Assembly: GCF_003334405.1 (NCBI RefSeq)
Contig: NZ_QOWM01000017.1
From: Escherichia coli
GTDB taxonomy: Bacteria > Pseudomonadota > Gammaproteobacteria > Enterobacterales > Enterobacteriaceae
Direction: 5' to 3' (one strand)
Length of the DNA stretch: 64,000 nucleotides
In this document: in pieces, positions 938-3,526 of the stretch
Layout: each line of letters begins with the position of its first letter
How positions within the stretch are numbered: position 1 is the first letter of the stretch
Notes under the pieces: generated by a model
Told to the model about the DNA's origin: nothing
Seen by the model: the letters and a program-made list of their open reading frames with translations, nothing else
Databases searched by the model: none
Made by a program: the position numbers and the translations under genes

Positions 938-1684
938 ATGAGCCAATATCTGATTTTTCAGCTTCATGGGCCGATGGCGTCCTGGGGTGTCGATGCTCCA
1001 GGTGAAGTTCGTCATACCCATGAACTTCCTTCGCGCTCAGCATTGCTGGGGCTACTGGCTGCCGGGGTAGGGATTCGGCGTGATGATACCGAACGCTTAA
1101 ACGCGTTTAATCGCCACTATTCACTGGTGGTTTGCGCCAGCCGTAACCCGCGCTGGGCACGGGATTATCACACGGTCCAGATGCCAAAAGAGGTGCGTAA
1201 AGCACGTTATTTCAGCCGTCGCGAAGAGTTGAGCGACCCTGAGCTTTTGAGCGCGATTATCTCCCGGCGCGACTACTACACCGATGCCTGGTGGATGGTG
1301 GCGGTGGCAACAACCCCCGATGCGCCTTACAGCCTCGAACAGTTGCAGGACGGTTTACGCCATCCGGTTTTTCCGCTTTATCTGGGGCGAAAAAGTCATC
1401 CGCTGGCGTTACCACTTGCGCCGTTACTGCTCGAAGGCAACGCGTCTGATGTCTTACGTAACGCATACCAACAGTATCAGGATCGTTTCCGCGAACTGAA
1501 AGTCTCACTCCCGAAACTTCAGGATGAATGCTGGTGGGAAGGGGAGCACGATGGTTTGGTCGCAAGCAAAATATTACGCCGCCGGGATGTTCCTTTAAAT
1601 CGTCAGCAGTGGCTGTTTGGGGAACGCACCATCAATCAGGGGCCGTGGCTCAGCAAGGAGGAACCATGTACCTCTCAAGAATAA
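938..1684 (+). CDS. casD: Cascade subunit CasD/Cas5e (248 aa)
   Basis: Track ORF 938..1684; position between casC and casE; N-terminus has the Cas5e-like pattern (LIFQLHGPMASWG) but is divergent from the K-12 protein as I recall it. Confidence 0.75.
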   Translation: MSQYLIFQLHGPMASWGVDAPGEVRHTHELPSRSALLGLLAAGVGIRRDDTERLNAFNRHYSLVVCASRNPRWARDYHTVQMPKEVRKARYFSRREELSDPELLSAIISRRDYYTDAWWMVAVATTPDAPYSLEQLQDGLRHPVFPLYLGRKSHPLALPLAPLLLEGNASDVLRNAYQQYQDRFRELKVSLPKLQDECWWEGEHDGLVASKILRRRDVPLNRQQWLFGERTINQGPWLSKEEPCTSQE

Positions 1685-2316
1685 CCTTACATACCGGCCA
1701 GCTTTCGCCTGCGCAGTTGCTGCATCTGGTGGATCGCGGTGAATATGTGATGCATCAGTGGTTGTGGGATCTCTTCCCTGGCGGCAAAGAAAGGCAATTT
1801 CTTTATCGTCGGGAAGAACTCCAGGGCGCGTTTCGCTTTTTTGTCCTCTCGCAGGAACGCCCGGCGGAAAGTGAAACTTTCACCATCGAATGCCGGTCAT
1901 TTACGCCCGAGCTGAGTACCGGACAACAACTTTGTTTCAACCTGCGGGCGAATCCAACAATCTGTAAAGCGGGCAAGCGCCACGATCTGCTGATGGAGGC
2001 GAAACGGCAGGTGAGGGGACAGGCGGAAGGAAGTGATGTCTGGTTGCATCAACAACAGGCGGCGCTGGACTGGCTGGCAGCGCAGGGGGAAAGAAGTGGT
2101 TTTACACTACTGGATACCTCGGTTGATGCCTACCGACAACAACAACTCCGGCGGGAAAACTCCTGGCAACTGATCCAGTTCAGTAGTGTGGATTATACGG
2201 GGATGCTTACGGTCACCGATCCTGGGTTATTTCTGCAACGTCTCAGTCAGGGGTATGGCAAAAGCCGGGCGTTCGGTTGTGGTCTGATGCTGATCAAACC
2301 TGGAGCAGAGGCGTGA
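1666..2316 (+). CDS. casE: CRISPR repeat endoribonuclease CasE/Cas6e (216 aa)
   Basis: Track ORF 1528..2316; start moved to ATG 1666 (MYLSRITL..., the conserved Cas6e N-terminus), 19-bp overlap with casD; C-terminal GCG motif (FGCGLM); 4-bp overlap with cas1. Confidence 0.8.
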   Translation: MYLSRITLHTGQLSPAQLLHLVDRGEYVMHQWLWDLFPGGKERQFLYRREELQGAFRFFVLSQERPAESETFTIECRSFTPELSTGQQLCFNLRANPTICKAGKRHDLLMEAKRQVRGQAEGSDVWLHQQQAALDWLAAQGERSGFTLLDTSVDAYRQQQLRRENSWQLIQFSSVDYTGMLTVTDPGLFLQRLSQGYGKSRAFGCGLMLIKPGAEA

Positions 2317-3236
2317 CGTTTGTACCGCTGAGCCCGATCCCGTTAAAAGATCGCACCTCCATGATCTTCCTCCAGTACGGTCAAATCGACGTACTGGACG
2401 GCGCTTTCGTGCTGATCGACAAAACCGGGATCCGCACGCACATTCCGGTGGGATCGGTCGCCTGCATTATGCTCGAACCGGGAACGAGAGTTTCCCACGC
2501 GGCGGTGCATCTGGCCGCCACGGTGGGGACGCTACTGGTCTGGGTCGGTGAAGCGGGTGTTCGCGTCTACTCTTCCGGACAACCCGGTGGGGCGCGTGCT
2601 GATAAGTTACTCTACCAGGCAAAGCTGGCTTTAACGGAAGATCTACGCCTGAAGGTGGTGCGCAAAATGTATGAATTACGTTTTCGTGAGCCACCGCCAG
2701 CTCGCCGTTCAGTGGAGCAGTTACGGGGAATTGAGGGATCCCGCGTTCGCCAGACGTATGCATTACTGGCGAAACAATATGGTGTGAAATGGAATGGTCG
2801 CAAATACGATCCTAAAGACTGGGAAAAAGGCGATGTTGTCAATCGTTGCATCAGTGCTGCCACATCATGCCTGTACGGTATTTCTGAAGCTGCAGTATTA
2901 GCTGCGGGATATGCGCCCGCTATTGGTTTTATCCATAGCGGCAAACCGCTTTCATTTGTTTATGACATAGCCGATATCATTAAATTTGATTTGGTTGTGC
3001 CAAAGGCATTTGAAATAGCAGCGAGGCAACCCGCAGAACCAGATAAAGAAGTCAGGTTGGCCTGTCGCGATATTTTCCGTAGTAGTAAATTAACGGGCAA
3101 GTTAATTCCGTTAATTGAGGAAGTGCTTGCCGCTGGTGAAATTGAACCACCACAACCCGCGCCGGATATGTTACCGCCTGCCATCCCTGAACCTGAAACC
3201 TTAGGCGATAGCGGTCATCGAGGACGCGGCGGATGA
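2313..3236 (+). CDS. cas1: CRISPR integrase Cas1 (type I-E)
   Basis: Track ORF 2277..3236; start placed at in-frame GTG 2313 so the product begins (M)[26 protein letters not shown], closely matching K-12 Cas1 (YgbT); overlaps the casE stop. Confidence 0.9.
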
Positions 3237-3526
3237 GTATGATCGTAGTTGTAACGGAAAATGTTCCTCCACGTTTACGTGGACGGCTCGCTATCTGGCT
3301 ACTGGAAGTGCGTGCCGGTGTGTATGTCGGAGATACATCCAAACGTATTCGGGAGATGATCTGGCAGCAAATCTCTCAACTGGCAGGTTGCGGAAATGTA
3401 GTGATGGCTTGGGCGACCAATACCGAGTCAGGTTTTGAATTTCAGACCTGGGGTGAAAATAGACGTATTCCGGTGGATTTGGATGGGTTGCGTTTGGTTT
3501 CTTTTCTTCCTGTTGATAATCAATAA
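3233..3526 (+). CDS. cas2: Cas2 (type I-E), 97 aa
   Basis: Track ORF 3233..3526; [34 protein letters not shown] closely matches K-12 Cas2 (YgbF); 4-bp overlap with cas1; directly precedes the CRISPR leader. Confidence 0.9.

Follow-up and report, generated by a model that had tools for sequence, protein, structure and literature searches.

The type I-E cas operon at the start of the window (the 64,000-nt stretch of Escherichia coli DNA from contig NZ_QOWM01000017.1 analysed here) is cas-E1, also called cas-EO, the O157-type allele whose divergence from the K-12 operon has been known since 2010-2014 and was tabulated again in 2025. It is an intact and unremarkable majority allele of E. coli, accompanied by its cognate leader and a type-A CRISPR array. 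An earlier note had read the operon as a mosaic, in which K-12-like cas1-cas2 are joined to divergent casD and casE at a recombination breakpoint near position 2300. Similarity to K-12 does step up sharply at the casE/cas1 junction, but a breakpoint at ~2300 in this genome is not borne out. Very probably the operon is an ordinary E1 allele in which the step arises from the slow evolution of Cas1-Cas2 together with an ancient exchange of modules, with no new junction at 2300.

Organization of the operon and its array

All of the features lie on the + strand in the order casC-casD-casE-cas1-cas2-leader-array, which matches that of type I-E systems. The E1-variant casC (cas7e) is represented by its 3' 308 codons (positions 1-927), the 5' end lying outside the window, and its DNA matches at 100% the cas7e annotated by RefSeq in strain N18-04097, among others. 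It is followed by the E1 variants of casD (cas5e; 938-1684; 248 aa) and casE (cas6e; 1666-2316; 216 aa, starting MYLS), and then by cas1 (cas1e; 2313-3236; 307 aa) and cas2 (cas2e; 3233-3526; 97 aa). casE shares 19 nt with the end of casD and 4 nt with the start of cas1; the cas1 ORF opens at 2277, and its GTG start is that given by RefSeq. The genes lie where the earlier note placed them, and CasD and CasE have the lengths given there. The corresponding K-12 proteins CasD, CasE, Cas1, and Cas2 are 224, 199, 305, and 94 aa long, and the values that the note gives for K-12 CasD and CasE are correct. All five signature proteins score far over the curated cutoffs of their NCBIfam models: 354 bits for CasC (TIGR01869, cutoff 178), 160 for CasD (TIGR01868, cutoff 69), 289 for CasE (TIGR01907, cutoff 45), 381 for Cas1 (TIGR03638, cutoff 216), and 132 for Cas2 (TIGR01873, cutoff 33). 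All ORFs in the window are intact, and the residues predicted to matter for catalysis are kept: in the alignment, H30 of CasE falls opposite H20, the catalytic residue of the K-12 protein, and the Cas1 residues at K-12 positions E141, H208, D218, and D221, which we take to be active-site residues, are invariant.

An AT-rich leader (3527-3622), classed as type A by its association with the type-A repeat, precedes an array of 17 type-A repeats (GTGTTCCCCGCGCCAGCGGGGATAAACCG) and 32-nt spacers (3623-4627; period 61). The 29-nt palindromic repeat, which reads GTGTTCC… on the window strand and …GGGGAACAC on the opposite strand, folds into a hairpin of -15.2 kcal/mol whose stem is also that of the K-12 repeat. 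The last repeat of the array (4599-4627) carries one C-to-T change, and beyond it lie a terminal spacer (4628-4659) and a degenerate last repeat (4660-4688), which together (4628-4688) are identical in K-12.

Identity with the published cas-E1 allele

The suggestion in the earlier note that the operon represents one of two documented, divergent I-E variants of E. coli holds: it is the variant named cas-E1 by Almendros et al. 2014 (PMC3903273) and cas-EO by Diez-Villasenor et al. 2013 (PMC3737337), and a table with the same lengths and identities has since appeared under "var. B-8552" (PMC12736100, 2025). Together with PMC2886076, these papers are the literature behind the explanation given here. 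The linkage of leader and cas variants is described in both PMC3737337 and PMC3903273, and repeat types A and T are defined in the former. The published cas-E1 shares with the window its gene lengths (cas5, 747; cas6, 651; cas1, 924; and cas2, 294 nt), its position between cysH and iap, and its repeat type (A), and nothing of substance sets the two apart. Positions 1-3600 are 100% identical in DNA to the cas-E1 operon of UMNF18, one of the group-A strains that PMC3903273 names as exceptions to the carriage of cas-E2. At least 25 complete genomes of E. coli have the segment at 100% identity, and matches with at least 80% query coverage are present in 2,639 of the 5,426 genomes searched (~49%). 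In a genome that shares the identical segment, cas3 (2700 nt), casA (1563 nt), and casB (537 nt) of the same E1 variant lie upstream.

Within the E1 family, identity is flat from casC to cas2. For casC, casD, casE, cas1, and cas2, respectively, DNA identity is 96, 97, 97, 95, and 92% to O157:H7 (FRIK804), whose allele thus differs from that of the window by 3-8% per gene; 93, 95, 94, 94, and 91% to E. albertii; and 78, 78, 72, 78, and 79% to Salmonella (S. diarizonae). A comparison with RM14516 is likewise flat. Consequently, no switch in parental identity against E1-family references occurs across casC-cas2, and the proposal of a mosaic operon fails both on this point and on the many genomes that carry positions 1-3600 unchanged.

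Divergence from the K-12 operon

The K-12 operon, cas-E2 or cas-EK, belongs to the same subtype as the operon of the window, with its genes in the same order and at the same place in the chromosome. The two differ in their leaders (the leader regions are ~71% identical), in the repeat (GAGTTCC… in K-12, a difference of 1 nt), in GC content, which is higher in the E1 operon, and in the lengths of CasD (248 vs 224 aa) and CasE (216 vs 199 aa), the E1 proteins being the longer. The acquisition motif of the E1 variant is reported to be CWT rather than CTT (PMC3737337). By blastp, identity to the K-12 proteins is 30-34% for CasC, 35% for CasD, and 27% for CasE, but 85% for Cas1 and 86% for Cas2. 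The divergence claimed for CasD and CasE is therefore confirmed, and the motifs named in that note do align (FNLRANP with FRLRANP, FGCGLM with MGCGLL). Upstream, E1 Cas3 and CasA are 28% and 21% identical to their K-12 counterparts, and no similarity is detectable between the two CasB proteins. DNA can be aligned to K-12 only from about 2313-2346, so that the identity step at the casE/cas1 border is indeed sharp.

Cas1 and Cas2 had been called near-identical to the K-12 proteins; this overstates their similarity, since cas1-cas2 DNA is ~72% identical overall (65-79% per 100 nt) and its synonymous sites are saturated. In cas1, dN is 0.13 and pS 0.84; in cas2, 0.13 and 0.75; and in casD, 0.74 and 0.79. 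Synonymous saturation in cas1-cas2 thus equals that in casC-casE (pS 0.78-0.84), and no young segment was found among the 50-codon segments of cas1. Given Cascade proteins at 27-35% and cas1-cas2 at this distance, the operon is not a cas-E2 allele. The flanks, by comparison, have dS of 0.06 (iap) and 0.05 (cysD), with Iap 99% and CysD 100% identical. Dating the split of cas1-cas2 from K-12 by dS was ruled out, because pS reaches or exceeds saturation in each of the genes and in all of the 50-codon segments; the E1/E2 split is undatable for this reason.

Divergence from K-12 stops within the CRISPR array, at ~4600, with near-identity from there onward, and this array end is consistent with the repeat-spacer tandem for which PMC3903273 uses the term "anchor". 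Within the window, the divergent block takes in at least casC-cas2 and the leader, plus the greater part of the array, and it probably reaches upstream to cas3, judging from the genome with the identical casC-cas2 segment. E1 is an old alternative allele set between the conserved cysH and iap flanks.

Unequal rates of protein evolution

Cas1 and Cas2 evolve ~4-6x more slowly than the Cascade subunits. At ~78% DNA identity to Salmonella, Cas1 and Cas2 remain 96% and 94% identical in protein, but CasC, CasD, and CasE are 85, 81, and 78% identical. The interference modules of E1 and E2 (cas3-casE), which are ~30% identical, appear from phylogenetic incongruence to be two deep lineages, A and B. 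Pairs within lineage A whose Cas1 proteins are 84-87% identical share 56-72% in CasC, 46-65% in CasD, and 41-56% in CasE, and E1 and E2, with Cas1 at 85%, share just 27-35% in the three proteins.

Rate heterogeneity could in principle suffice, if the whole E1 and E2 operons split once and were always passed on intact, so that the step reflects the constraint on Cas1-Cas2. Such a history agrees with the conclusion of Touchon & Rocha 2010 that the entire cas group was co-transferred, and the ~4-6x slower change of Cas1-Cas2 at equal DNA divergence, when extrapolated, predicts a Cascade identity of 37-52% at Cas1 85%, which is most of the observed step. However, the 27-35% observed falls below the 41-56% of lineage-A pairs of the same Cas1 identity, and Cas1-Cas2 group according to host genus, whatever the Cascade lineage (below). 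We consider it unlikely that rates account for the step on their own, and attribute it to the slow evolution of Cas1-Cas2 and to interference modules drawn from two deep lineages.

Probable exchange of interference modules in Gammaproteobacteria

Trees of gammaproteobacterial loci were built by neighbour-joining from corrected p-distances of tblastn-derived sequences, with bootstrap. The loci are the best 80 of 202 ranked by Cas1 similarity, and the apparent floor of ~75% in Cas1 identity is an effect of this selection. In the CasC+D+E tree, lineages A and B are each monophyletic (1.00). In the Cas1+Cas2 tree, same-genus loci cluster despite having different Cascade lineages, with bootstraps of 1.00 for Marinomonas, 1.00 for Oceanospirillum, 0.89 for Methylophaga, 0.97 for Halopseudomonas, and 1.00 for the alteromonads. 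In no case do E1 and K-12 pair as sisters in this tree (bootstrap 0.00). K-12 instead groups (0.94) with three loci that have lineage-A2 Cascades (L016, L027, and L028), to whose Cas1 its own is 93-95% identical. An alternative in which whole operons always travelled intact has difficulty with the clustering by genus and with this similarity of K-12 Cas1 to A2-linked proteins, as it does with pairs such as L071/L072, whose cas1-cas2 DNA is 88% identical next to Cascade proteins at ~30%. A recent import of K-12 cas1-cas2 from the L016/L027/L028 group was considered and rejected, since DNA identity is ~73% despite the similarity of the proteins. K-12 and C. amalonaticus (CasC 74%, Cas1 86%) fit vertical co-divergence.

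From this incongruence we infer that Cas1-Cas2 and the repeats track the host genus and that Cascade lineages have been swapped at casE|cas1 among the 80 loci. Same-genus swapped pairs are 91-100% identical in Cas1 and 24-38% in CasC/D/E; their DNA becomes homologous at the cas1 start or immediately behind casE, and some of the pairs are homologous in the upstream flank as well. Convergence in amino-acid composition was rejected as the source of the host clustering for pairs with 80-88% cas1-cas2 DNA identity and a sharp homology boundary. Lineages A and B of Cascade would thus have been exchanged repeatedly, and in situ, against a host-tracking cas1-cas2-leader-repeat module, with the recombination junction at casE|cas1, the point from which sequence is conserved. 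Repeats of identical sequence accompany A1, A2, and B Cascades, and because all lineages use essentially the same repeat, Cascade modules are plausibly plug-compatible. E1 shows no sign of a swap since before the Escherichia-Salmonella split, and the discordance probably sits on the K-12 (E2) branch. To this extent the earlier reading was right: casE|cas1 does mark a border between modules on a deep time scale.

The same border invites the idea that E1 is itself an ancient hybrid, in which an A1 interference module came to lie before an enterobacterial cas1-cas2 prior to the radiation of Escherichia, Salmonella, and Klebsiella. Swaps at casE|cas1 are common in the family, and synonymous saturation would hide very old events. 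However, all 14 loci with A1 Cascade have Cas1-Cas2 in one clade (bootstrap 0.83), A1-type Cas1 is found beside another Cascade lineage in none of the 80 loci, and the DNA identity with Salmonella shows no step at the junction; we regard such an origin as quite improbable.

In the classification papers of Makarova and Koonin, adaptation and effector modules are reportedly treated as having evolved in part independently, and the incongruent phylogenies of Cas1-Cas2 and Cascade/Cas3 in the 80 loci are of the same kind. What sets the present case apart from the general concept of modular CRISPR-Cas systems is that exchange would be confined to a single subtype (I-E) and to a locus that is syntenic on the chromosome, that its junction falls precisely on casE|cas1, and that the repeat remains with the adaptation genes. 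On balance we lean slightly toward a broader description, in which the I-E locus of Gammaproteobacteria consists of two cassettes, the interference cassette is swapped in situ, K-12 lies on a swap branch, and strain BS-04 (below) is a hybrid. The adaptation cassette would be an ultra-conserved, host-tracking cas1-cas2 with leader and repeat, preceded in marine lineages by a KilA-N gene; the interference cassette, cas3-casE, would comprise three or more deep lineages that share ~30% identity; and recombination may be anchored in the first bases of cas1. A swap of this kind could escape anti-CRISPRs that target Cascade while spacer memory stays. A preprint with an anti-CRISPR census contains nothing on the E1/E2 variants, and a literature search that combined KilA-N with type I-E and cas1 gave no result.

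A natural hybrid at the casE/cas1 border

Hybrids were sought with chimeric E1/E2 queries and were called by the identity of full-length places. A count of matches at ≥80% coverage was rejected as a test for mosaics, since it is confounded by the extension of megablast through the 72%-identical cas1 half. Among the genomes searched with these queries there is one true E1/E2 hybrid, E. coli BS-04 (L083; assembly GCF_044648255.1), which combines an E2 Cascade with E1 Cas1-Cas2 and has its crossover ~30 nt into cas1. In a three-way alignment of BS-04, the window, and K-12, every informative site is K-12-type up to L083 position 9630 and E1-type from 9631; the equivalent position in the window is 2342-2344, where the window itself has no crossover. 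The opposite combination, E1 casE joined to K-12-type cas1, occurs in 0 of 5,426 genomes. Thus, although the identity step falls exactly at the casE/cas1 border and BS-04 shows that a crossover at that spot is physically possible, the proposal that a recent E. coli recombination near 2300 joined K-12-type cas1-cas2 to a non-K-12 Cascade is already refuted by the identity of positions 1-3600 to the standard E1 operon of many genomes, by synonymous saturation in a cas1-cas2 that is ~72% identical to K-12, and by the flat identity to other E1-family operons, and with the never-sister Cas1-Cas2 groups, the missing reciprocal class, and a K-12-divergent block that ends at ~4600 rather than 2300, it has almost no chance of being right.

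Implications

For the window itself these results are of little importance, as it carries the standard majority E. coli allele. K-12 is the experimental model for type I-E systems, with structures of Cascade (4QYZ, 4TVX, and 5H9F) and of Cas1-Cas2 (4P6I and 5DS4), and a search of the PDB found no structure of an E1-type Cascade. Results from K-12 may not transfer to about half of E. coli with respect to Cascade structure, PAM and acquisition motif, and sensitivity to anti-CRISPRs. Module swapping, if confirmed, would bear on the evasion of Cascade-directed anti-CRISPRs without loss of the spacer archive, and on the design of hybrid I-E systems.

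Composition and identity of the cas operon

The window opens within a type I-E cas operon, which lies on the + strand and comprises the 3' 308 codons of casC/cas7e (1-927), casD/cas5e (938-1684; 248 aa), casE/cas6e (1666-2316; 216 aa), cas1e (2313-3236; 307 aa from the RefSeq GTG start, in an ORF that opens at 2277), and cas2e (3233-3526; 97 aa). An AT-rich CRISPR leader (3527-3622), an array of 17 repeats of GTGTTCCCCGCGCCAGCGGGGATAAACCG with 32-nt spacers (3623-4627), and a last spacer with a degenerate terminal repeat (4628-4688) follow on the same strand, and then iap (4710-5747, - strand) and cysD (5999-6907). 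Each of the five Cas proteins scores well above the cutoff of its curated NCBIfam type I-E model, all ORFs are intact, and the 17 array repeats are regular. Window Cas1 keeps the residues at K-12 positions E141, H208, D218, and D221, the active site. The CasE motifs that the earlier note found in both the window and K-12 do align, as does the conserved histidine that is catalytic in K-12. Several ORFs of 54-95 aa on both strands of 3666-4759 were rejected as genes, being repeat artefacts with recurring peptides such as FPAPAGI and SPLARGT.

The operon is the published majority I-E variant of E. coli and is already known: of the two documented divergent variants, it is the one named cas-E1 (Almendros et al. 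2014, PMC3903273) or cas-EO (Diez-Villasenor et al. 2013, PMC3737337), here E1, the K-12 variant being cas-E2 (E2). E1 and E2 each have their own leader (PMC3903273). cas-EO is linked to leader-A and CRISPR-A, and its Cas1-Cas2 acquires spacers beside CWT, not CTT (PMC3737337). Almendros et al. concluded that the whole cas-E set was replaced by cas-E2 in a minority of strains including K-12, and Touchon & Rocha 2010 (PMC2886076) proposed that recombination within conserved flanking sequence, for example the CRISPR, replaced the entire locus. A 2025 paper (PMC12736100) gives 924/918 bp, 73% DNA identity, and 84% protein identity for cas1, 75%/86% for cas2, 32% for cas5, and 29% for cas6; these figures match those computed here. 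Searches with chimeric queries place E1 in ~2,640-2,650 complete E. coli genomes (49%) and E2 in ~1,180-1,220 (22%). A PDB search returned no E1-type Cascade structure, the nearest being K-12 Cascade at 45-69 bits.

Some related loci are damaged. In RM14516, a stop codon interrupts cas1e (2513-3436 of its locus); the decayed locus of E-93 (H16) retains only cas1 from window-equivalent 2722 on, cas2, and the array; in that of LHM10-1 (H23), a Cas3'' fragment adjoins the array. The cas operon of Pseudocitrobacter vendiensis is 95-98% identical in protein to E. coli E1 (CasB 86%), and Salmonella, Klebsiella, and Citrobacter fall far below this (CasC/CasD/CasE 74-87%), which suggests either that the operon moved between genera recently or that there is a problem with the labelling. 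Two short MAG contigs assigned to Firmicutes ("Bacillota bacterium", L003) and Actinobacteria ("Collinsella sp.", L079) encode cas proteins 94-100% identical to E. coli E1 and are most likely mis-binned Escherichia contigs.

The step in similarity to K-12

In blastp comparisons with K-12 MG1655, CasC, CasD, and CasE are 34%, 35%, and 27% identical, and Cas1, Cas2, Iap, and CysD 85%, 86%, 99%, and 100%; alignable DNA begins at ~2313-2346, the start of cas1. The similarity step that the earlier note observed at the casE/cas1 border is thus real, and the K-12 lengths it gave for CasD and CasE (224 and 199 aa) are correct, those of Cas1 and Cas2 being 305 and 94 aa. Its description of Cas1 and Cas2 as near-identical to K-12 does not hold at these protein identities: cas1-cas2 DNA is 65-79% identical per 100 nt, and megablast against K-12 genomes reported no match to it.

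The step had been read as a recombination breakpoint near 2300. However, by Nei-Gojobori estimates synonymous sites relative to K-12 are saturated in cas1 (pS 0.84) and cas2 (0.75) just as in casC, casD, and casE (0.78-0.84), with dS of 0.06 and 0.05 in the flanking iap and cysD. What differs is dN, 0.13 for cas1 and cas2 and 0.74-0.90 for casC-E. When cas1 was scanned against K-12 in 50-codon segments, none was younger than the remainder. Positions 1-3600 matched 25 or more complete E. coli genomes, UMNF18 among them, at 100%, the kind of outcome that the earlier note had specified as refuting its idea; 2,639 of 5,426 genomes contain 80% or more of the operon's length. Across casC, casD, casE, cas1, and cas2, DNA identity to operons of the same family stays flat through the junction: 96.4, 96.7, 96.5, 95.2, and 92.2% for O157:H7; 93.1, 94.5, 94.4, 94.0, and 91.2% for E. 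albertii; and 77.7, 77.6, 72.1, 77.9, and 78.6% for Salmonella diarizonae. The block divergent from K-12 passes 2300 and spans cas2, the leader, and the array, of which K-12 shares no more than the penultimate repeat, last spacer, and degenerate repeat, from ~4600. The saturated pS, 100% matches, flat identity, and block end at ~4600 together refute a breakpoint near 2300 in this genome, leaving of that interpretation the assignment to a known variant. In a genome whose casC-cas2 is identical to 1-3600, cas3 (2700 nt), casA (1563), and casB (537) are all of the non-K-12 type. On a deep evolutionary timescale, the casE/cas1 border does mark a true boundary between modules.

Within 4599-4688, a point change distinguishes the penultimate repeat (GCGTCAGC) from that of K-12 (GCATCAGC), and the last spacer and terminal repeat are near-identical to K-12 though the cas variant differs; such a shared repeat-spacer is the "anchor" tandem of Almendros et al. 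2014 (PMC3903273). Strain N18-04097, whose casC-cas2 segment is identical to 1-3600, carries a toxin gene of the hok/gef family together with an IS421 transposase between cysH and cas3 (2272-3729 of its locus); K-12 has sokX at the matching site upstream of cas3.

Slow evolution of Cas1 and Cas2

Rates were calibrated with Salmonella, where the genes differ from the window to an equal extent in DNA (~78% identity). Protein identity there is 96% for Cas1, 94% for Cas2, and 85/81/78% for CasC/D/E, so that protein distances differ 4-6 fold. Extrapolated to a Cas1 identity of 85%, this ratio predicts ~37-52% for CasC/D/E; Pectobacterium, of the same Cascade lineage as the window, has 84% for Cas1 and 56/46/41% for CasC/D/E. 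Since E1 and K-12 CasC/D/E are only 27-35% identical, below the prediction, constraint accounts for most of the step but leaves a remainder. Cas1e and Cas2e of this clade (loci L003-L082) are under unusually strong purifying selection. Cas1e is not intrinsically confined to at least 75% identity, because other I-E Cas1 structures score ~205-220 bits versus 586 for K-12 Cas1. Cas1-Cas2 of K-12 and of loci L016, L027, and L028 are 93-95% identical in protein at only ~73% in DNA, and protein identity is at least 75% even in the Betaproteobacteria Parasutterella (L070) and Bordetella ansorpii (L082).

Probable exchange of modules at the casE/cas1 border

The BS-04 hybrid and the family-wide cassette pattern are the only parts of this analysis possibly worth follow-up. 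Two artificial junctions were searched against all 5,426 complete E. coli genomes. For E1 casE fused to K-12 cas1, no genome gave a full-length match of high identity; K-12 casE joined to E1 cas1 matched one, BS-04 (NZ_CP172819.1; 96.7% over 100% of the query), the sole such hybrid in this set, as assembled. BS-04 has K-12-length cas3-cas6e, after which come a Cas1 of 306 aa, listed in RefSeq under a protein accession of its own, and a Cas2 of 97 aa that is E1-type; the switch from K-12-type cas3-casE to cas1-cas2, leader, and array of E1 type falls in the 9560-9700 region of its locus. In a three-way alignment, informative sites are all K-12-type to 9630 and all E1-type from 9631, placing the crossover ~30 nt into cas1 (window-equivalent 2342-2344). 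Thus, recombination can occur at the junction named by the earlier note, but BS-04 has the opposite arrangement to the K-12 cas1-cas2 behind a non-K-12 Cascade that the note proposed, and no such crossover is present in this window.

A Cas1 profile scan of Bacteria and Archaea, with one genome per species, gave 202 loci, of which the best 80 were analysed (Cas1 75-99% identical to window Cas1). Of the deep Cascade lineages, A divides by CasC identity to E1 into A1 (72% or more) and A2 (~52-64%), B is K-12-like (CasC 51-74% identical to K-12), and C holds the few loci that are neither. In a CasC+D+E tree, A and B are each monophyletic (bootstrap 1.00). In the Cas1+Cas2 tree, host genus sets the grouping whatever the Cascade lineage: Marinomonas L038 and L040 (A2 and B; bootstrap 1.00), Oceanospirillum L030 and L033 (B and A2; 1.00), Methylophaga (A2 and B; 0.89), Halopseudomonas L063 and L066 (C and A2; 0.97), and the alteromonads L071 and L072 (C and A2; 1.00). 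K-12 groups with L016, L027, and L028 (B and A2; 0.94), and E1 and E2 (A1 and B) as sisters receive 0.00. Same-genus pairs with different Cascades are 91-100% identical in Cas1 and 86-97% in Cas2 but only 24-38% in CasC/D/E, and their DNA homology (76-88%) begins at the exact cas1 start or directly past casE. For some of these pairs, homology extends to the upstream flank as well, which implies an in-place replacement of cas3-casE.

A1 Cascades all accompany one Cas1-Cas2 clade (bootstrap 0.83), so the window's own lineage is without discordance. It is K-12 that is discordant: its Cas1 is 93-95% identical to Cas1 beside A2 Cascades; Citrobacter amalonaticus has the Cascade closest to that of K-12 (CasC 74%), yet its Cas1 is 86% identical to K-12. 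This swap, whichever its direction, is old, because DNA identity between K-12 and L016, L027, and L028 is ~73%.

Repeats travel with the adaptation module (cas1-cas2, leader, and repeat), not with Cascade: the exact E1 repeat adjoins A1, A2, and B Cascades, and a second repeat variant adjoins A2, B, and C. Because the same repeats lie beside different Cascades, lineages only ~30% identical would work on one crRNA hairpin and its handles, which, as we infer from the repeats, would answer the earlier question of crRNA processing compatibility across Cascade lineages.

In at least eight marine gammaproteobacterial I-E loci (L072 at 9177-9998, L071, L048, L055, L063, L066, L080, and L038), a gene for a ~270-aa protein with a KilA-N domain (Pfam PF04383, E=1.3e-21) lies directly between casE and cas1, and fragments of it occur in L049, L051, L054, and L081. 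In the literature library searched, no paper names KilA-N, type I-E, and cas1 together. The gene, 74-91% conserved, occurs with all three Cascade lineages and travels with cas1-cas2.
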